Below, one piece after another: positions 15,875 through 27,632 of a DNA stretch of 27,679 nucleotides. Under the pieces are notes generated by a model. It saw only the letters and a list, made by a program, of their open reading frames with translations. It made no database searches and was not told the DNA's origin. Origin of the DNA: Sulfurimonadaceae bacterium (GTDB taxonomy: Bacteria > Campylobacterota > Campylobacteria > Campylobacterales > Sulfurimonadaceae); NCBI GenBank assembly GCA_041562555.1, contig JBFEXS010000017.1, forward strand, positions 1 through 27,679. The letters run 5' to 3'. The translations under genes were made by a program, and so were the position numbers. The stretch's first letter is position 1, and each line of letters opens with the position of its first letter.

Positions 15875-17512
15875 ATGAAAAAACTTGCCATTATCGGTCG
15901 TCCCAATGTTGGAAAATCATCTCTTTTTAACCGCCTGTTAAAACATCGCGATGCGATTACCTCTGATCAGGCAGGTACTACCCGTGATGTCAAAAAACGC
16001 GTTGCACAGATCCTCGATAAAGAGGTACAGATCCTCGATACTGGCGGACTCGACAAAGGGTGTGAGCTCTTTGACAAGATCAAAGAAAAAGCGGTCAAAG
16101 CCGCCTATGAAGCAGATATCATCCTCTATGTCGTTGACGGAAAGACCATTGCGAATGATGAAGACAAAAAGTTTTTCTATGAGCTTCAAGCTATGGGAAA
16201 AGCCATGGCACTCGTTGTCAACAAGATCGACAATGACAAGATGAATGAACGCCTATGGGATTATTATGAGTTTGGCACCGATACAATCTTCGGTATCTCT
16301 GTCGCGCACAATCGAAATACGATCAAACTGATCGAATGGATTTATGAACAGCTCCCAAGCGATGAGGAAAAAGAAGCCGAAGCACAGGCTTTGCTTGAGG
16401 CGGAGGAGGATGTGGGCCATGATTATAATCTTCCTGAGTTTGATGAGCAGGAAGATGAAGTCCACGAAAGGCTACTCACCGAGGATGAAAAACTGGCCTT
16501 TGAAGAAAATGACCAGACCAGGTTTTATGACCCCGAGCGTCTCAACCAGGTCAAAGTCGCGATTATAGGCCGCGTGAATGTCGGAAAATCCTCTTTGCTG
16601 AATGCGCTTATCGGTGAAGACCGTTCTGTCGTCTCAGAGGTTGCCGGTACCACAATCGATCCCATAGATGAAATGATCGAAGTAGGTGATAAAAAAGTTA
16701 CCTTTGTCGATACTGCCGGTCTTCGTCGCCGTGGAAAGATCCTTGGTATTGAAAAGTTCGCACTCAACCGTACCAAAGAGATGCTCAAAAATGCGGATAT
16801 AGCCCTACTTGTCCTTGATGCATCACAACCCTTTAAAGACCTGGACGAGAAGATTGCAGGACTTATTGACGAAAACCGTCTTGGCTGTATCATCATCCTT
16901 AATAAATGGGATCTTACGGACAAAGATTATGAAAAGTTCACTGAACGCGTACGTAGCCGTTTCAAGTTTTTACATTATGCACCGATCCTCACGATCTCAG
17001 CACTGACCAAACAACGCGTTCATAAGATCATGGATAAGATCCTTGAGATCAATGACAATTACTCTCAGCGTATCGGGACTTCCAAACTCAACCGTGTGAT
17101 CGAGTTAGCACAGCGACGACACCACCTTCCATCGGTAAAAGGTAAGACTATTCGCCTATATTACGTTACTCAGTATGACATCCGTCCTCCGCGTATCGCA
17201 CTGGTTATGAACCGCCCTGAAGGTCTGCACTTTACCTACCGACGTTATCTGACAAATAAGTTGCGTGAAGCCTTTAATTTTGAAGGCACGCCTGTACTTT
17301 TTCATGCGCGAAGCAAAAAGCAGCGTACTATTGTCTCGGATGAACCAAACTTTGTCGAAGATATGTTTGGTGAAAGTGTCACAGAAGAAGAGATGGAAGA
17401 GATGTATCAAGAGTTTGAAGATGGTGAATATGAATCAGAGTTTGAGCATAATATGGAAGCAGACGCAAAGAGTGATGATGATATCGAAGAAGGATTTGTC
17501 GACATAGACTAG
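15875..17512 (+). CDS. der: ribosome biogenesis GTPase Der (EngA)
   Basis: Two G domains (GRPNVGKS/DTGG/NKID and GRVNVGKS/DTAG/NKWD) plus KH-like domain; extra acidic tail. Confidence 0.97.
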   Translation: MKKLAIIGRPNVGKSSLFNRLLKHRDAITSDQAGTTRDVKKRVAQILDKEVQILDTGGLDKGCELFDKIKEKAVKAAYEADIILYVVDGKTIANDEDKKFFYELQAMGKAMALVVNKIDNDKMNERLWDYYEFGTDTIFGISVAHNRNTIKLIEWIYEQLPSDEEKEAEAQALLEAEEDVGHDYNLPEFDEQEDEVHERLLTEDEKLAFEENDQTRFYDPERLNQVKVAIIGRVNVGKSSLLNALIGEDRSVVSEVAGTTIDPIDEMIEVGDKKVTFVDTAGLRRRGKILGIEKFALNRTKEMLKNADIALLVLDASQPFKDLDEKIAGLIDENRLGCIIILNKWDLTDKDYEKFTERVRSRFKFLHYAPILTISALTKQRVHKIMDKILEINDNYSQRIGTSKLNRVIELAQRRHHLPSVKGKTIRLYYVTQYDIRPPRIALVMNRPEGLHFTYRRYLTNKLREAFNFEGTPVLFHARSKKQRTIVSDEPNFVEDMFGESVTEEEMEEMYQEFEDGEYESEFEHNMEADAKSDDDIEEGFVDID

Positions 17513-17646
17513 CAAAGTCAGCCTAGTCTTCGAAACTTTTAACTTCCTAAACCACTTCCGCAGGTTTTCTAGAGCCTACTTCTCTTTATTCACTTATGAA
17601 ATTTTTCCTCGGCTCTACACCTTCTATTCAAGATTTATACTATATG

Positions 17647-17681
17647 ACAGCATTATGACTAAAGAAATAATGCTGTTTCTT
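17647..17681. terminator. hairpin between convergent der and the lipoprotein gene
   Basis: Perfect 10-bp inverted repeat ACAGCATTAT (17647-17656) / ATAATGCTGT (17667-17676), followed by TTCTT on +. Confidence 0.55.
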
Positions 17682-17696
17682 GTAAGACAATGATTA

Positions 17697-18161
17697 TTAA
17701 AGGTGAGGAACTAATTCCAAATAGATAGTATCTTCAAGTTTTGCAAGCTCTTTATTAAATGCTTCTTTTTGACGATTATTATCAAATGACTGTCCATACT
17801 CCTGTGACAGCTTGATCCTAAAAAACTTTTCATTTATATCAACATTAACAAATATTTCGTTTTTGACCACCCGTTTATAACGACGTTTTGCACGAAGTGC
17901 TGAAAATTCTCGTTTCTTTGTAAAATAGATCTTTTTCAGATTAATAGATTGGGATGCCGGATCGATGATATCCCAGTCATTTTTTTCAGCAGCCCGTGTG
18001 ATTGCGTTTTTAAGCACCTCGACATCAAAATTATTTGTAAATCTTTTTTGAATTGACGACACAGGTGTAGCAGATGGTGAATGACTACAACCTGAAATTA
18101 CAAGAGTTGAGAGTATTAACAATGTGACTAAAAGTTTATTAACTGTAGATTTTATTAGCAT
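17697..18161 (-). CDS. hypothetical lipoprotein
   Basis: AAGGA SD; basic-hydrophobic signal with lipobox ISGC; 154 aa. Confidence 0.78.
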   Translation of the reverse strand: MLIKSTVNKLLVTLLILSTLVISGCSHSPSATPVSSIQKRFTNNFDVEVLKNAITRAAEKNDWDIIDPASQSINLKKIYFTKKREFSALRAKRRYKRVVKNEIFVNVDINEKFFRIKLSQEYGQSFDNNRQKEAFNKELAKLEDTIYLELVPHL

Positions 18162-18219
18162 AGTTTTCCTTATATTGCTTATAGATATTTAAATATTATA
18201 TATTATGGATAAAACTATA
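18159..18219 (-). promoter_or_regulatory. mRNA stem pairing the leader-ORF stop region with the SD/AUG of the downstream lipoprotein
   Basis: Minus strand AUAGUUUU (18218-18211) pairs with AAAACUAU (18167-18160). CC (18208-18207) pairs with the GG of the SD (18169-18168) after a 2-nt bulge. Confidence 0.55.
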
Positions 18220-18496
18220 TTATGCGGGGAGGTTTGAAGATGTTCTTGGTGAGAGTAAAAAAGACAAAGTCCTTATCAGGAAATGACAAACTTTTACAAC
18301 AACTTTCTAATCTAGTCGGTTTTTCAACAAAGTCAACTATGTCGCCAATAGATTCACTTTCAGCATTTTCGACTTCACCCACAGACTCAACGGTAATCTC
18401 ATGCTGCACAAGTACTGAGCTATGATACTCAACAATATTTATAGTCATGACGAGAAAGGTCACAAGACTAAAAAAGAGTAAAAGTTTGATTTTCAT
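18215..18496 (-). CDS. small signal-anchored protein ending IFKPPRII; candidate arrest/leader peptide
   Basis: Start reassigned to ATG 18496, because the ORF-track TTG at 18532 is the -35 box. MKIK + hydrophobic helix, acidic linker, CC, C-terminal PP; 93 aa. Confidence 0.65.
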   Translation of the reverse strand: MKIKLLLFFSLVTFLVMTINIVEYHSSVLVQHEITVESVGEVENAESESIGDIVDFVEKPTRLESCCKSLSFPDKDFVFFTLTKNIFKPPRII

Positions 18497-18503
18497 GTTA
18501 GGA

Positions 18504-18532
18504 AGTATAAACATTCTTGTGTCAAAAGTCAA
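18504..18532 (-). promoter_or_regulatory. near-consensus sigma70 promoter implying a leaderless transcript
   Basis: TTGACT (18532-18527), 17 bp, TATACT (18509-18504), 7 nt, ATG; no SD. Confidence 0.7.
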
Positions 18533-18582
18533 GATTCATTAAAGATAGACTTTAGCTCCATGATGAATCCGGACAAAAGATA

Positions 18583-19017
18583 TTAAAATGGTTTAACGAT
18601 GACCATCGCTACGATCAGCAACATCAGTATTGTCGGTATCTCATTATACTTTCTAAAAAAACTTCCTGTTTTTTCACACCTGTCCTCTAGGAACTGTTTT
18701 CTGTAATATCCCATGGAAAAGAAAAAAGCGATCAGAAAGACCATCAAAGTCAATTTGGCATGCAGCCATCCCCCGCTTTGAAACAGGCCGGGATTAAGTG
18801 CGATCATCGCAATACCGGAAATCAACGTCGCCCAAAAAGCAGGAACCCCTATATATTTATACAATTTCATCTCCATGATCTTGACCACTTTTACGAATTC
18901 AGAATTGTCACTATTCTCTGCATGGTAGACAAACAGACGGGGCAGATAAAAGAGTACAGCAAACCAAGAGATCAATGAGACGACGTGAAACCACTTTATC
19001 CAATCATAATATTCCAT
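18583..19017 (-). CDS. hemJ: protoporphyrinogen IX oxidase HemJ
   Basis: KWFHVVSLISWFAVLFYLPRLFVYH, WLHAKL and YNEIPT..IVKPF; AAGGAG SD. Confidence 0.94.
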   Translation of the reverse strand: MEYYDWIKWFHVVSLISWFAVLFYLPRLFVYHAENSDNSEFVKVVKIMEMKLYKYIGVPAFWATLISGIAMIALNPGLFQSGGWLHAKLTLMVFLIAFFFSMGYYRKQFLEDRCEKTGSFFRKYNEIPTILMLLIVAMVIVKPF

Positions 19018-20456: not shown

Positions 20457-21377
20457 CTAGCGGTGTAGGTCTAACCAGACCATAAGGCCTTTTTGCGCAT
20501 GAAGACGGTTCTCCGCCTCTTCAAAGATCAGACTTCTTGGTCCTTCAAGCAAGGCTTCACTTACCTCTTGTCCACGATAGGCAGGAAGACAGTGTAAAAA
20601 GACCGCATCCTCCCGTCCGAGATCCATCATAGTATCATCTACCATATATCCGGTAAAAGCCTTTTGACGTACCTCCTTCTCATCTTCTTGACCCATCGAA
20701 GCCCAGGTATCTGTTGTGATGACGCTTGCACCCTTAGCAGCTTCCTTTGGATCATTGGTGACAATGATCTTTCCACCGCTCTCTTCACAAAAGCCCAAAG
20801 CATCCTGTAAGATCGTCTCATCGACCTCATATCCCTTTGGTGTAGCAATACGTAATTCAAAACCAAGTTTCGCAGCCAGCATCATCCATGAGTGGGTCAT
20901 ATTATTACCGTCACCTACATACGCCACGATAGGATCCTTGTCCATTCCATGTTCGATCATTGTCATATAGTCTGCCAAGAGCTGTACAGGATGATAGGAG
21001 TCTGTCAGTCCATTGATAACCGGTACCGAAGAGTAGGAAGCAAACTCTTCTAGACGCGCATGCTCAAAGGTACGGATCATGATCATATCGGTCATACTGG
21101 AGATGACACGGGCGGTATCCTTTACAGGCTCTCCCCGGCCTAATTGAATATCTTTGTTTGACAGGAAAAGGCCATGGCCTCCGAGCTGAAAGATCCCTGA
21201 TTCAAAACTTACACGTGTACGTGTCGAACTCTTCTCAAATATCATCGATAGTGTCTGTCCATTAAGATAAGGAGGCTGAGCCTTGGCCTTAAACTCTTTT
21301 TTAATCTTCAGACCTAATTCAACAATCTCTAAGATCTCTTCTTTCGTATAATCTTTTAGTGTTAAAAAATGTCTCAT
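20457..21377 (-). CDS. argF: ornithine carbamoyltransferase
   Basis: [24 protein letters not shown] and AENRLH. Confidence 0.96.
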
Positions 21378-23809
21378 TCTTCACCTTTATTTCGTATTTG
21401 TAAAACTTCATCACAACTCATAACCGGTCCGATATAAAAACCTTGTACATACTCGATACCGATCTCTTTGACGATTTCATACAATTCATCTGAACTAACG
21501 AATTCAGCGATGACTTCAATTCCAAGATTGCTCGCGAAATTATAGATTCCCTCTACGATCTGTCGGTCCTGTTGACTTGTATGCATATGCTCGATCAGTG
21601 AGCCGTCTATCTTGATATAATCCGGCTTGATCTGACTCAAATAGGCAAAGTTCGAATACCCTGTACCAAAATCATCAATAGCAATCTTGAAACCGCTGTG
21701 TTTAATTTCTTGGATGATTGTAATATAGTTTTCTTTAAGTAGCTCTTCAGACTCGACCAACTCTAACACAACGGATTCGGGAGATATCTCATATTTGTTC
21801 GTTTTTGATATAAGATAATCGATCATATCCTCATCCAGGTCATCCCGCGTCATATTAATGGAAAGATCGACCTGGCACTGCTTATAAGACTGAAAACTCT
21901 GGTCGATGATCAGTTTGGTCAGCTCTTTTTCGTGGCCTGAGTTTTGCAAAACGCCCAGGAAATCCGCAGGAGAAACCATCAGTTCTTGAGCTTTGTCATA
22001 CATACGGATCAATACCTCATACTTTACTATATCACCGGTTTCAACCGAAGCAATAGGTTGAAAATGTACCGCGAAGAGCCCCTCTTGAAAGGCAGTGGCA
22101 ATCTTTTTTACCCATTCAAGGTTTGCCTTATGACGCTTCTCAAGCAGTGCCTCTTCATCATAATAGGCAAATCGCTTGTTGGTGCGGATCGCATAGCGCG
22201 AAGCAATCTCTGCACGGCTTAGCAGTGAGGCTTCCGAATGTTCAGTATCCGAAGCAGCAATCCCGAAGGTAAAAGACAGCGGCATATCGATGCCATCATG
22301 CTCGATGATATAGATCTCTTTGAGTTTGGCAATCAACAGATTAATGTATTGAGCATGGGAACAGACAATGACAAACTCATCAGAACCCATTCTGAAGACA
22401 GAAGTGCTCAACAAACTGTCTGAACTGATAGAACCGGCGATCTCTTTCAAGATCTGTGCCGTCTCTTTAAGATAAAAATCCCCCACATCCTGACCAAAGC
22501 TGTCATTGATATGCGAAAAGTTATGAATATCGATATAGATAATCGAAAAACGTTCTCCTATGCTTTGCAGACGTCCCATCTCTTCAAGAAGCTTGATACG
22601 GTTTGGTATATCCGTCAATTGATCGTTCTCATAGGTGTCTCTTATGATCTCTATCTGTTCATTGATCTTTTCATTAAAGGCGAACAAGGTACGGTAGATT
22701 ATTCCAAACTCACTCTTGGACTGCATCAACAAGACCTCGTTTTTACGTACGGGCTTTTGATTTTCATATAAAAAGTCCAACAGGGTCTGAAGGGCCTGTT
22801 TGATGTCAAAAAAGATAAACCATGCGATCAACAAGGCAATGATCAACGGAAATACGAGCATCAATATATTGTCATCAAAGTTTTCAGATGCGACAAGAAT
22901 GGCTTTTTCGATCTTCTCTTTGACCGTAGAACTGTTCAGATTCTCAATTCTTTTCAGATCCTCCATATAGATATCGTAATACCCCAGCCATTCCCGGATA
23001 TCAATACCACTGACCTTATGACCTACCTGCAGTTTCAACTCTTCCAACATCTGGTTAAGGTGAATAAATGAAGAGGTCGAATAAAGTGTGTAATAAGATT
23101 GTACCACTGAAGGCTTGGCAAAGGTCTTGAAGCGGTCCAGATAGGTCTGAGATTTGGCATCTTGAGTGATAATAAGATCGTACCAAAGCTGATCAAAGGC
23201 TTCATCCCTTCCTACTGCCACCTGAATAAGGGATTGCTGCAAGGCCGTGTATTCAATAGCATTGATCAGATTGAAATAGGCATTAAAATCATTAGACTCG
23301 ATCCGGGCTGTCATGAAGGCCATCAAATCAATAAAATGCTTGATAAGAGAATCCGTGTAGTATCGTACGATCTCATCTCCATCGATCTTGTGTTGATCTA
23401 CTTCTGCCCTGACATTATGCAGATTGTCGATCTCTTTGGTCAACAGAATGATTTTATCATTGATCTTTTGACTCGGAATGTTTTCAAGAGATTTCCGACA
23501 TGAGGAGAACATGACCAAAAGCTCATCCGTCGCATTGCGGACCTCCTGCAGTCTTTGCTTGTCATGACCATGCTCAACCGTAGCAATGGAGTAGGCGCGT
23601 TCTTTTTGCAGACTAAACAGAATCGTATTGATCTTCTGTGCCGTTTCAAAAGCAAAAAGGACCTTTTCCGTCTTCTCATTCTCTTTTATCGTATCTTGTA
23701 AATATGAGATATTCCAAAACAAGATCCCCGAGATCAGGAAAACAATGAGAAATGCGACCTTGATCTTGACACTGAAGCGGCTGAGGAAATAGAGAATAAG
23801 CTGAATCAT
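21374..23809 (-). CDS. membrane-bound NIT-HAMP-GGDEF(degenerate)-EAL protein, probable c-di-GMP phosphodiesterase
   Basis: TM, NIT-like periplasmic domain ([12 protein letters not shown]...LKRIE), TM, HAMP-like [13 protein letters not shown]...GSDEF, then EVLIR...ELVE...DDFGTGYS...KID...QGF. Confidence 0.88.
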
Positions 23810-24788: not shown

Positions 24789-24829
24789 GATAAGCCTTGA
24801 TAATATCTCATATTAGTGAGATTAAAAGA

Positions 24830-24838
24830 TGATATAAT
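24830..24838 (+). promoter_or_regulatory. extended -10 promoter of ribA
   Basis: TGaTATAAT upstream of ATG 24894. Confidence 0.55.
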
Positions 24839-24893
24839 TTCATTAAAATTTATACATCATTCTAACAAATCAATATACAAAAAGCAGTTAAAC

Positions 24894-25457
24894 ATGAACC
24901 TAGAGATATCGGAAGTTGCCAATCTACCCACTAAACACGGGATATTCAAGATTCAGACCTTCAAAGAACATCATAAAGAGCATTTAGTCATCTTTACCGA
25001 TGAACTCAATGATACTCCTATCGTCCGTGTACACTCCGAATGTCTTACGGGAGATGCCCTTGGTTCACTCAAATGTGACTGCGGTGATCAACTCGATTTT
25101 GCTCTCAAAACGATCGCGGAGCAAGGAGGAATGGTCCTTTACCTTCGTCAAGAAGGACGTAATATCGGTTTGTTGAACAAGGTGAATGCCTATGCCCTTC
25201 AGGACAAGGGATTTGATACGGTCGCGGCAAACCATCAGCTCGGTTTTCCTGCAGATGCACGCTCCTATGAGATCGTCCATGACATCTTGAAGTTTTACCA
25301 TATCAACAAGATCAAGCTGCTTACCAATAACCCTGAAAAGATCAAATCTCTTCAAGCCATAGAGATCGTAGAACGACTTCCGATTATCGTCGAAACTAAT
25401 GAGTTTAATGAAGGCTACCTGGAAGTCAAAAAAGATCAGATGGGACATTTACTTTAG
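24894..25457 (+). CDS. ribA: GTP cyclohydrolase II
   Basis: [32 protein letters not shown] and LLTNNPEK. Start reassigned to ATG 24894 ([13 protein letters not shown]). Confidence 0.96.
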
Positions 25458-25492: not shown

Positions 25493-26230
25493 TTATGTAA
25501 TCTTTTGCCGCCACTTGCCGAGTCTAAAAGCCTCGAGGATCTTTTGGACCTGTTTATCCTTTAGATCATGAAAACTATTACTATTCTGAAAAAAATCATT
25601 CATCCCCTCAATACTCTGAAGATCCTCTTTTCGTATATCGACATATCCCATAGACCAATCGGAAAAACTTTTTTCACGTGTTTTGAATTCTGTAATTTTT
25701 GCAATATTTCGGTGTCGTTTGTCTGCACATATCTTTTTATACAGTGCTCGTACAGGGCGAGGTTTCCCTTCCAATAATTGAAAAAACGATCCTTCATCAT
25801 ACAGCAATATACCCGTTATATCCAATTTTTCATTACGGATGCGCGATTTTTCTAAAAGCTTGTTCAATGCTTCCTTATCCGTTACGGATGTCTCTTCACT
25901 CACGTAGACAATCGTCAGGAGCTCATCTTCCTCTTGTAGCATCTGTTGGGCTTGATAAGGTTCAAGGGGCACTAAATTGTACGTTACAATCCCTTTCTTG
26001 ACAAGGGGCATGGATTTCAAAACTTTTTTCACCGACTCAAGTGAATCAACTTCCAGCATCAATACCGTTCCAGCCCGATCCCCCCGTGACCAATATGCCT
26101 GAATAATACCCCGCTTATGGCATTCAAGTATATACCTGTCATTTTTTCGAAGGTAGGCCTTTGCATTCTTTGCATACCTGTCATCTGTAAAACGTTCAAT
26201 CGCTAATATCTGCATGTCTAATCCACTCAC
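25493..26230 (-). CDS. muconolactone-isomerase-like domain fused to a BLUF (flavin blue-light sensor) domain
   Basis: BLUF motifs IVYVS, SRIRN, ITGILL, FFQLLEG, DKRH and FSDWSM. N-terminal GII..W.R.DR..TVLMLE...MPLVK.G...VPL.PY. Start is GTG 26230 or ATG 26215. Confidence 0.85.
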   Translation of the reverse strand: MSGLDMQILAIERFTDDRYAKNAKAYLRKNDRYILECHKRGIIQAYWSRGDRAGTVLMLEVDSLESVKKVLKSMPLVKKGIVTYNLVPLEPYQAQQMLQEEDELLTIVYVSEETSVTDKEALNKLLEKSRIRNEKLDITGILLYDEGSFFQLLEGKPRPVRALYKKICADKRHRNIAKITEFKTREKSFSDWSMGYVDIRKEDLQSIEGMNDFFQNSNSFHDLKDKQVQKILEAFRLGKWRQKIT

Positions 26231-26349
26231 AATAGTATACCAACACTAAAAGCAGTATATCATATTCATTTAGACTGATATGAAAAATATTATAGAAAAA
26301 GGCAGGAAGTAATCGAAGAGTGCCGTGTGTAGTGGTGTGAATAAGTCCA

Positions 26350-26399
26350 TCCGTCTCCCAAAGAAGACGGAAAACTTAAAAGCTTAAGAAGTCAAGCTT
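26350..26399 (-). terminator. tandem hairpins downstream of the porin gene
   Basis: Minus strand AAGCTTGA-cttc-TTAAGCTT followed by TTAAGTTTT, then a TCCGTCT/AGACGGA stem (26371-26350). Confidence 0.55.
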
Positions 26400-26402
26400 A
26401 AC

Positions 26403-27632
26403 TTAGAAGTTATACGTTAGGTAAACTTGGATCATGTTCTCTGCATCAGCAGTACCCGCAGCACCTGTTACTACTTCGTCTGTGTTGATAAATGCGATTG
26501 AAGTATCAACCGGACCATATGATTTAGATGCAGTAATTTCAAGCTGGTTAAGATCAGCAGCTGGTGTCGCACCGTCTATCATACCGTAACCAACATACAG
26601 ATCTACACCAGCAACCGTAGTCTCAGCAGAAACAAGGATAGTATCCGTCTCACCTGCAGCTACTCTACCATAGTTCCACGATAGTTCAGTATACAGTTTA
26701 GATTGTGCACCCGCCATGTTTTGACCTGCACCGATATCAGATGTTGTTGAGTATGCAACTTTGAACGTCGCTACGTCTTTCATCTCATACCCGATCATTG
26801 CAGCTACTGCATCACCGTCTAGACCTGCAGCAGCAGAAGGTGCTGAGTCAGAAATGTCAAGAGTTGCATATTGAACACCTGCTAAAAGGCCATTCATATT
26901 TAGATCAGCTTGTGCCCAGATAGCATTTGCCAAAGTTGGAGCTTCGTAATACCAGGCTTGAACAGTCAAACCTTCCATTGAGTTATTGATTGCACCGAAT
27001 GCATACGCACCCTTCTGACCAAATGTTGCGAAACGACTGTCATTATTGAAGACACCAGGAGCAGCTACAACGCCACCGATACCAGCACCAGTACCAAGAC
27101 CTGCAGCACCACCAGATGAGTTAGAGTTACCAATCCAAGCACCTACTAGTGTAGTGTTTGCGATATCTTCGTTGATTAATACAGCTGACTCAAATGTATT
27201 TTCAACGATTGACCATGTCTCAGTAAATGCAAGAGGTGTATCTAAAGTCTGACGACCAAGCTTAGCAGTCGTGTTTCCAAGCTTTGTAGCCATCCATGCT
27301 TCTGAGAACCAGTGATCACTTGTAGTACCTGCACCAGCTGCAGCTTCCCAAACTTGACCTACTAGGTTGTTTTCTAATCCTAAAGTAGAAAGAGCAGTAA
27401 GTTTTACACCTGCAGATACACCTTCTGTAAGGTCAGCAGTCATACCGATATTTAAAGCAGCATTTGCAGCACTTGATTGCTTATCAAATAGTCCACCTTC
27501 ACCAGCAGCAGTTTCACCATCATCAGTATGGTAGAAAAGTTTTGCATCACCATCAATCTTTACATTATCAATCGCATATGCATTTACACCTAATAATAGT
27601 GCCGCTGCTAAACTCATTTTCGCTAATTTCAT
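26403..27632 (-). CDS. major outer-membrane porin (Campylobacterota MOMP/OprD-like beta-barrel)
   Basis: MKLAKMSLAAALLLG signal; KLGRQTLDTPLAFTE; alternating beta strands; C-terminal YLTYNF (Bam signal); AAGGAG SD. Confidence 0.9.
   Translation of the reverse strand: MKLAKMSLAAALLLGVNAYAIDNVKIDGDAKLFYHTDDGETAAGEGGLFDKQSSAANAALNIGMTADLTEGVSAGVKLTALSTLGLENNLVGQVWEAAAGAGTTSDHWFSEAWMATKLGNTTAKLGRQTLDTPLAFTETWSIVENTFESAVLINEDIANTTLVGAWIGNSNSSGGAAGLGTGAGIGGVVAAPGVFNNDSRFATFGQKGAYAFGAINNSMEGLTVQAWYYEAPTLANAIWAQADLNMNGLLAGVQYATLDISDSAPSAAAGLDGDAVAAMIGYEMKDVATFKVAYSTTSDIGAGQNMAGAQSKLYTELSWNYGRVAAGETDTILVSAETTVAGVDLYVGYGMIDGATPAADLNQLEITASKSYGPVDTSIAFINTDEVVTGAAGTADAENMIQVYLTYNF

Follow-up and report, generated by a model that had tools for sequence, protein, structure and literature searches.

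The window analyzed here, a 27,679-nucleotide stretch of DNA from a Sulfurimonadaceae bacterium (contig JBFEXS010000017.1), carries on its minus strand a gene in which a muconolactone isomerase (MIase)-like domain is fused to the front of a BLUF blue-light sensor. As delimited by its open reading frame (ORF) and a family alignment, the gene occupies 25493..26215 (stop codon at 25493-25495) and encodes 240 residues, which are numbered throughout from the ATG at 26215. The protein is predicted to comprise an N-terminal domain with a beta-alpha-beta-beta-alpha-beta ferredoxin-like fold of the MIase/YCII type (residues 1-95, 25931..26215), a 10-residue acidic linker, AQQMLQEEDE, that varies in the alignment (residues 89-98, 25922..25951), a BLUF core (residues 99-190, 25646..25921) and a helical cap (residues 191-240, 25496..25645). 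To our knowledge, almost all of the BLUF sensors that have been studied either stand alone or lie N-terminal to an effector. The present fusion combines an ordinary-looking BLUF sensor with an unprecedented, apparently pseudo-enzymatic N-terminal partner. Its BLUF part is conventional, and BLUF genes are common in the bacterial family of the window; it is the function of the new domain that we infer.

With respect to gene structure, the uninterrupted ORF at 25493..26230 reported in an earlier note on this DNA was recovered, and its translation contains the motifs IVYVS, RIRN, FFQLLEG, DWSM, GKWR and QAQQMLQEED. The start of the gene, however, is most likely the ATG at 26215 (240 residues) rather than the GTG at 26230 (245 residues), because 16 of the 17 family members that we assembled share an aligned N-terminus of the form MQ/MK-(I/V/L)-LA, the other (P0002) being two residues longer. 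A stop codon between two separate genes, named in the same note as the observation that would overturn a fusion, was not found: the domain junction is free of stops and frameshifts in all 17 related sequences, which come from different assemblies. The junction is also spanned by a contig that another assembler built from sequencing run X1, which is identical to the window over 25561-26420 (0 differences, 0 gaps), and run X1 may be the source sample and hence not independent of the window assembly. The genome that holds the window (G000) is metagenome-assembled (137 contigs, 88.9% complete, 4.3% contamination), and the window contig has a guanine-plus-cytosine (GC) content of 0.420 as compared with 0.427 for the genome (standard deviation of contigs 0.011). 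The placement of the host in Campylobacterota, as the earlier note had it, agrees with the 90% cluster of hemB, which is named 'Campylobacterota bacterium'. Because 17 colinear sequences come from separate assemblies and a contig bridges the junction, the fusion gene is real. The architecture recurs, though rarely.

The C-terminal half of the protein was identified as a BLUF domain by several lines of evidence. Pfam BLUF (PF04940) matches it end to end (E 2e-29, 102 bits vs a cut-off of 25, model positions 1-92 of 92), and a whole-genome scan scores the same coordinates at 101.3 bits. When the family profile was compared with proteins of solved structure, the best matches were PixD/Slr1694 (8.8e-22) and BlsA (1.3e-21), followed by bPAC, TePixD and AppA. 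The residues that the earlier note had read as the BLUF photochemical set, together with a helical cap, are indeed present: Y104 (codon at 25904-25906), N128 (25832-25834), Q146 (25778-25780), W187 (25655-25657) and M189 (25649-25651), all on the minus strand, align with Y8, N32, Q50, W91 and M93 of PixD. A Foldseek search with the AlphaFold model of the protein (predicted local distance difference test, pLDDT, 83.5; predicted template modeling score, pTM, 0.56) returned TePixD (1x0p) at E 2e-10 with a target-normalized template modeling (TM) score of 0.82 and a root-mean-square deviation (rmsd) of 2.5 over 137 columns, and comparable TM scores to other whole short BLUF proteins, their cap helices included (PixD 0.79, BlsA 0.79, BlrB 0.80). 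Two cap helices are modeled, at residues 196-200 and 220-231, and the cap carries conserved G-x-NDFF and AF-x-x-G-K/R-W-R motifs, which, in the form G-x-NDFF and AF-x-x-G-x-W-R, are common to the fusion and 12 stand-alone BLUF sequences. The BLUF half is moreover colinear to its last residues with abundant stand-alone BLUF proteins of 146-152 residues. Together, core and cap (the last 142 residues) make up an entire short BLUF protein of the PixD/BlsA/BlrB/PapB type.

Across the family, the Asn and Gln are conserved in 17/17 sequences, the Tyr in 16/17, and the Trp and Met in 14/16, while D165, R167 and H168 are invariant. All five photocycle residues are kept in the window protein and 13 other members. 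We have high confidence that the fusion protein would bind flavin and undergo a BLUF photocycle. A metagenomic sister pair on a long branch (P0011 and P0275) departs from this pattern, with the strand-5 Trp replaced by Tyr and the Met by Thr or Phe, and P0011 additionally has Phe in place of the photoactive Tyr. These two proteins may represent a light-blind branch of the fusion family.

In terms of the N-terminal domain, the earlier note had pointed to a resemblance of the first ~90 residues to the MIase/YCII-like family, and this fold is upheld by our models. Pfam MIase (PF02426) matches residues 14-88 (25952..26176, minus strand) at E 6.7e-6 and 26.6 bits, 0.1 bit below the cut-off of 26.7. 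Pfam YCII (PF03795) matches residues 53-83 of the 245-residue form only (E 0.025, 15.5 bits vs a cut-off of 24), and NCBIfam gave no meaningful match for the fusion protein. When the domain was folded with 49 relatives in AlphaFold2, it reached a pLDDT of 94.4; in the full model, the block covering residues 91-100, in the linker region, shows a dip in pLDDT to 69. Foldseek placed the 5-chloromuconolactone dehalogenase ClcF first (E 1.4e-6, TM 0.68-0.83), then TftG, HI0828 and MIase itself (1mli, E 9.5e-4, TM 0.68). A VIA-align comparison with 48,161 chains gave the same leaders (ClcF Z 12.8 with rmsd 3.2 over 88 aligned residues, TftG 12.0, HI0828 11.3), with the next tier dropping to Z ~8-9 and consisting of generic ferredoxin-like regulatory modules. 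The assignment of the modeled domain to the MIase/YCII-type fold holds.

Sequence searches place this domain in a large set of small proteins. A HMMER search with residues 1-95 against 1.84 billion representatives yielded 190 proteins at E<=1e-3 (6 at E<=1e-10), which are mostly stand-alone and ~96-105 residues long, together with a few tandem doubles of 212-309 residues. The tandem forms (P0096, P0097, P0098, P0100, P0102, P0108, P0114 and P0156) each contain two matched stretches and would build a two-domain barrel in one chain. When Pfam was run on 50 of 150 listed N-domain matches, 30 hit MIase at E<=0.01 (5 above the cut-off) and 16 had no family; source names of the stand-alone relatives include 'hypothetical protein', 'YciI family protein' and 'muconolactone delta-isomerase'. 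In the ESM Atlas, the whole protein retrieved BLUF clusters only, with scores <=0.80, and the N-terminal domain retrieved uncharacterized clusters of ~96 residues at 0.93, in which MIase is found in 15-21% of members.

The fusions have lost a key residue of these relatives. A profile of the stand-alone relatives matches ClcF at E 4.5e-4 and MIase at E 1.5e-3, and its near-invariant Glu lands on Glu27 of both; in the ClcF E27A entry the same column falls on Ala. This Glu is present in 47/49 stand-alone relatives and in 0/17 fusions, where it is replaced by Asn (14) or His (3). In the window protein the aligned residue is Asn25 (codon at 26141..26143, minus strand). The column of Arg39 shows a related trend (46/49 stand-alone relatives vs 7/17 fusions), and the reverse is seen for Trp42 (11/49 vs 17/17), the first residue of a WSRGD motif identified in the family alignment (W42-D46, 26078..26092, minus strand). 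Mean pairwise identity over 120 pairs amounts to 0.487 in the N-terminal domain, as against 0.472 in the BLUF core and 0.521 in the cap. Being as conserved within the family as the BLUF core, the domain is functional, but probably not as an isomerase. With the Glu absent from all 17 fusions, a scaffold or a module for partner binding is more probable than an isomerase gated by light. The domain thus appears to be a pseudo-enzyme drawn from a large uncharacterized family of ~100-residue proteins, and we propose with moderate confidence that it serves a non-catalytic scaffold or partner-binding role. As judged from these alignments, it is the replacement of the Glu corresponding to E27 of ClcF and MIase throughout the fusion family that is new here.

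The distribution of the fusion is consistent with the view in the earlier note that this was an unrecognized architecture, which we found to be rare and uncharacterized. Of 344 candidates from a search of 5.8 billion protein clusters, 93 proteins reached E<=1e-3. Only 11 of these, including the query, are full-length (237-243 residues), the other ten being 46-59% identical to the query; the remaining 82 cover 38-67% of it, over the BLUF half. Precomputed annotations list PF02426 together with PF04940 on 8 of the 11, the window protein among them. Further members came from library representatives (P0095, and P0275 via its cluster), metagenome contigs (2 full-length fusions among the best 80 loci), species genomes (1 among the best 80, protein P117 of Glaciecola petra) and a second genome of the window's genus (G063), whose orthologue is 63% identical and cut by a contig end, bringing the family to 17. 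Among 353 genomes of the window's family, two (G000 and G063) were found to carry the fusion, which also turned up in G. petra, a cultured marine isolate belonging to the gammaproteobacteria, and on roughly a dozen contigs from metagenomes. A match to the N-terminal domain was obtained in 3 of the 353, the third being a weak 98-residue stand-alone frame (E 9.9e-4). No longer protein of 421-2000 residues sharing the N-terminal domain was found, an absence that the tool itself grades as weak evidence.

We also looked for the two halves as separate neighbors. Two hidden Markov models, one built from the stand-alone relatives and the other from the fusion N-terminal domains, were run over 13,714 stop-to-stop frames from 168 loci (1.31 Mb), and they matched only the 5 fusion genes themselves; a separate MIase-like gene lay near the BLUF gene in 0 of 163 BLUF-only loci within the flanking DNA examined. 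RefSeq and UniRef name the G. petra protein, accession WP_311369574.1, only as "BLUF domain-containing protein". Full-text literature searches, judged by title and the start of the abstract, returned no paper on an MIase-like/BLUF fusion. The suggestion that the lineage was not known for light sensing is weakened: a BLUF match is present in 29 of 201 sampled genomes of the family, BLUF-EAL proteins included. No paper on BLUF sensors of Campylobacterota was found under Sulfurimonas, Epsilonproteobacteria or Campylobacterota, as judged from the listed entries.

Phylogenetic analysis was used to examine the origin of the fusion. The tree comprised 148 BLUF sequences, of which 17 were fusion halves, 83 came from loci in named genomes or genomes of the family and 48 were stand-alone database matches (two tblastn matches that were too short or contained a stop were left out), and was built by a quick method with SH-aLRT (approximate likelihood-ratio) support only. 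All 17 fusion halves form one clade with a support of 100 and a stem of 0.67, whose sister group the tree leaves unresolved, and the BLUF domains of other genomes in the window's family, including the BLUF-EAL proteins, are placed elsewhere. Within the clade, the window BLUF clusters with that of G063 and four metagenome sequences (support 98), and G. petra with P0009. Because the fusion halves form one clade, a single fusion event is indicated, after which the fusion would have spread patchily in Campylobacterota and Gammaproteobacteria. That 2 of 353 family genomes and a gammaproteobacterium carry the fusion suggests an older horizontal transfer.

Base composition bears on a further suggestion of the earlier note, namely that the gene looked AT-rich and might on that account have been acquired. 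Its GC content is indeed low (0.398 vs an ORF mean of 0.438, standard deviation 0.025; 5.5th percentile of 1312 ORFs), and GC at third codon positions lies at the 9th percentile. Codon usage is nonetheless ordinary (31st percentile of 613 ORFs). In four other hosts, where gene and flank GC are 0.367/0.390, 0.325/0.311, 0.297/0.301 and 0.412/0.421, the gene tracks its flanks. The compositional signal is not significant and gives no support to a recent arrival.

The surroundings of the fusion gene differ from locus to locus, and no conserved neighbor was found across the 5 fusion loci with context. In the window, the gene is convergent with ribA (24816..25457, plus strand), which encodes GTP cyclohydrolase II, the enzyme that opens the riboflavin pathway, with 35 bases between the stop codons; this adjacency is seen in the window locus only and is probably a coincidence. 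Directly upstream lies a gene for a 409-residue outer-membrane-like protein (26403..27632, minus strand) for which Pfam gave nothing at E<=0.001, and whose sequence shows a signal-peptide-like N-terminus and a C-terminal ...TYNF as in outer-membrane beta-barrels. The fusion gene is preceded by a gap of 172 bp, in which two overlapping sigma-70-like promoter matches occur (26234..26286, minus strand). These are consensus matches only, and 6 such matches were seen in the upstream region vs 3.3 expected. No RNA data covering the stretch were found among the runs listed, and the sole run that contains it is labeled marine metagenome, a label that is uninformative on light. Elsewhere, the fusion gene of G. 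petra is flanked by MipA, DUF3019 and a two-component pair, that of locus L090 by an ars operon, and that of L091 by a penicillin-binding-protein fragment and exbD. Separately, the lowest GC in the window (0.32-0.37 vs about 0.42) occurs at ~17500..18900, where two minus-strand ORFs with no Pfam match (17697..18161 and 18215..18532) adjoin a gene for a UPF0093/CopD-like membrane protein.

A possible link to cyclic-di-GMP emerges from the wider family. On the window itself, a gene for an 811-residue protein with NIT (nitrate/nitrite-sensing), GGDEF and EAL domains (21377..23809, minus strand) lies 1.7 kb from the fusion gene, with hemB and ribA between them, and G000 contains 19 EAL matches. 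In G063, a gene for a 366-residue EAL-only protein (contig C160, L083 564..1664, minus strand; Pfam EAL E 9.6e-56, residues 126-351, preceded by a ~125-residue N-terminus that matches no family) stops 12 bases short of the fusion start, on the same strand and upstream of it, and the pair looks like an operon. Other genomes of the family encode BLUF-EAL proteins, namely BlrP1-like proteins of 408 residues (G083, L084 1504..2730) and 457 residues (G018, L086 1369..2742) and one of 717 residues (G090, L085 586..2739) in which ~315 residues with no family match precede BLUF-EAL. With a BLUF match in 29 of 201 genomes, blue-light control of cyclic-di-GMP seems widespread in this sulfur-oxidizing family. 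Passages of one published study describe PapB, a short BLUF protein, as regulating the EAL-only partner PapA through its C-terminal helices (PMC8846402). Given the one operon in G063 and an association otherwise at the family level only, we put forward an EAL cyclic-di-GMP phosphodiesterase, with low confidence, as the leading candidate partner.

Building from these observations, we favor a reading, to which as a whole we would assign a probability of roughly 0.55, in which the fusion protein is a cytoplasmic blue-light sensor with an N-terminal oligomerization or partner-binding domain. A single fusion would have joined a formerly free ~100-residue protein of MIase/YCII fold to the N-terminus of a BLUF protein by a 10-residue linker, after which the N-terminal domain would have lost the near-invariant Glu and the Arg of its stand-alone relatives and stayed conserved. 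The BLUF half would carry FAD or FMN and undergo the photocycle usual for BLUF, with its hydrogen-bond switch between Tyr and Gln, and the N-terminal domain would act in oligomerization or partner binding, most likely not as an isomerase. Like other short BLUF proteins, it would signal through contacts with other proteins that depend on light, with an EAL-domain phosphodiesterase as a possible recipient. Signaling through such contacts is known for PixD with PixE and for BlsA with its partners.

Several points weigh against this reading. The pTM of the full-length model leaves the relative placement of the two domains unfixed, and a family alignment of 17 sequences is shallow. The catalytic role of Glu27 in ClcF and MIase is one that we presume, its support here being an entry title ('ClcFE27A with substrate'), and Asn or His at position 25 could serve other chemistry. 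As for the EAL partner, one of the 5 loci for which context is available has an EAL neighbor, the neighbors in the window, G. petra, L090 and L091 being unrelated, and G000, at its 88.9% completeness, holds no homologue of the G063 EAL protein above 33% identity.

A more specific proposal concerns quaternary structure. Decamers with five-fold symmetry are known in both parent families, MIase/ClcF and PixD/TePixD, and every relevant entry or pair of entries has a chain count divisible by ten: 1mli, 3zo7 and 1x0p have 10 chains, 4fpi and 8i98 have 20, 2hfn paired with 2hfo gives 20, and 3znj paired with 3znu gives 50. The fusion could on this basis be a natural light-switchable decamer, in which a dead isomerase-like core would hold BLUF rings and light would alter the assembly state or the binding of a partner, for instance an EAL phosphodiesterase. 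We offer this tentatively and consider it unlikely.

The light-switched small enzyme that the earlier note envisaged is weakened by the present analysis. Here the N-terminal domain would be catalytic, its altered active site made up of Asn/His25 and the invariant WSRGD motif, and the BLUF half would switch it. Enzymes (ClcF, TftG and MIase) are indeed the nearest solved folds, purifying selection acts on the domain, which has invariant polar residues of its own (W42, S43, R44 and D46), and the short linker would suit allosteric coupling. Nonetheless, the residue aligned with E27 is Asn or His in every fusion as compared with Glu in 47/49 stand-alones, Arg39 is variable, catabolic or aromatic-degradation genes lie beside none of the 5 loci with context, and the stand-alone relatives are themselves uncharacterized, such that we regard a light-gated enzyme as rather improbable. 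We are equally doubtful of a dual-input sensor, whose N-terminal domain would bind a small-molecule ligand, in the manner of small regulatory modules with a ferredoxin-like fold, and combine a chemical cue with blue light. This proposal draws on the structural matches that follow the MIase/YCII group (the NikR C-domain, Lrp/AsnC RAM and ACT domains, Z about 7-8.6) and on the small-molecule pockets that entry titles ascribe to the YCII-type proteins TftG and HI0828, but Z values of 7-8 are at a level that the tool calls common for unrelated folds, the ligand cannot be named, and the neighborhoods contain no conserved pointer to a metabolite.

It is also conceivable that the BLUF half is light-blind and has taken on a redox, temperature-related or wholly structural role, a proposal that has been made for some degenerate BLUF domains. 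The host family consists of chemolithotrophs, often of dark habitats, and P0011 and P0275 do lack the Trp and Met (P0011 the Tyr as well). The retention of all five photocycle residues in the window protein and 13 others, along with the invariant Asn, Gln, D165, R167 and H168, makes this highly improbable. Finally, an artefact, whether an assembly or sequencing error that merged neighboring genes or a foreign contig in a fragmented bin with some contamination, has a negligible chance of explaining the data given the matching contig GC, the same-genus orthologue and the bridging contig from another assembler, and the joining of two genes is refuted for practical purposes by the junction shared across 17 colinear sequences of separate assemblies, that of the cultured G. 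petra included.

BLUF sensors serve both as models of flavin photochemistry and as building blocks for optogenetics, and the fusion is of interest in each respect. A folded domain on the N-terminal side of BLUF sits beside strand 1, and coupling to it would need a different route. If the decamer proposal were true, the protein would represent a new wiring of BLUF, with the output module at the N-terminus, and a ready-made optogenetic oligomerization tool. The finding also adds to the genomic evidence of cyclic-di-GMP-linked blue-light sensors in sulfur-oxidizing Campylobacterota. Direct experimental access is provided by the cultured, non-pathogenic marine G. petra, which carries one member of the family.

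The fusion protein can be compared with several known systems. Its N-terminal domain shares the ferredoxin-like fold and length of MIase (CatC, 1mli) and ClcF (3znj, 3zo7 and 4fpi), with a sequence similarity that is weak but consistent (identity only 17-20%); unlike these enzymes, it has Asn in place of Glu27, is fused to a photoreceptor and lacks a catabolic gene context. The YCII/YciI-type proteins TftG (4lbh) and HI0828 (1mwq) give a fold match that nearly equals that of ClcF, and some close relatives of the domain are named 'YciI family protein', whereas identity to the two is 10-16% and the Pfam YCII score is below cut-off. BLUF sensors linked to cyclic-di-GMP turnover, namely BlrP1-type BLUF-EAL proteins, occur in the same bacterial family, and the G063 orthologue is located behind an EAL gene; the fusion protein differs from the BlrP1 type in having no EAL match and a BLUF half that does not group with the BLUF-EAL proteins of the family in the tree. 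Further counterparts are the short BLUF proteins PixD/Slr1694, TePixD/Tll0078, BlsA, BlrB and PapB, which share the BLUF core and two-helix C-terminal cap. Whereas those proteins have no second domain, the fusion carries a folded domain of 95 residues directly before BLUF strand 1.

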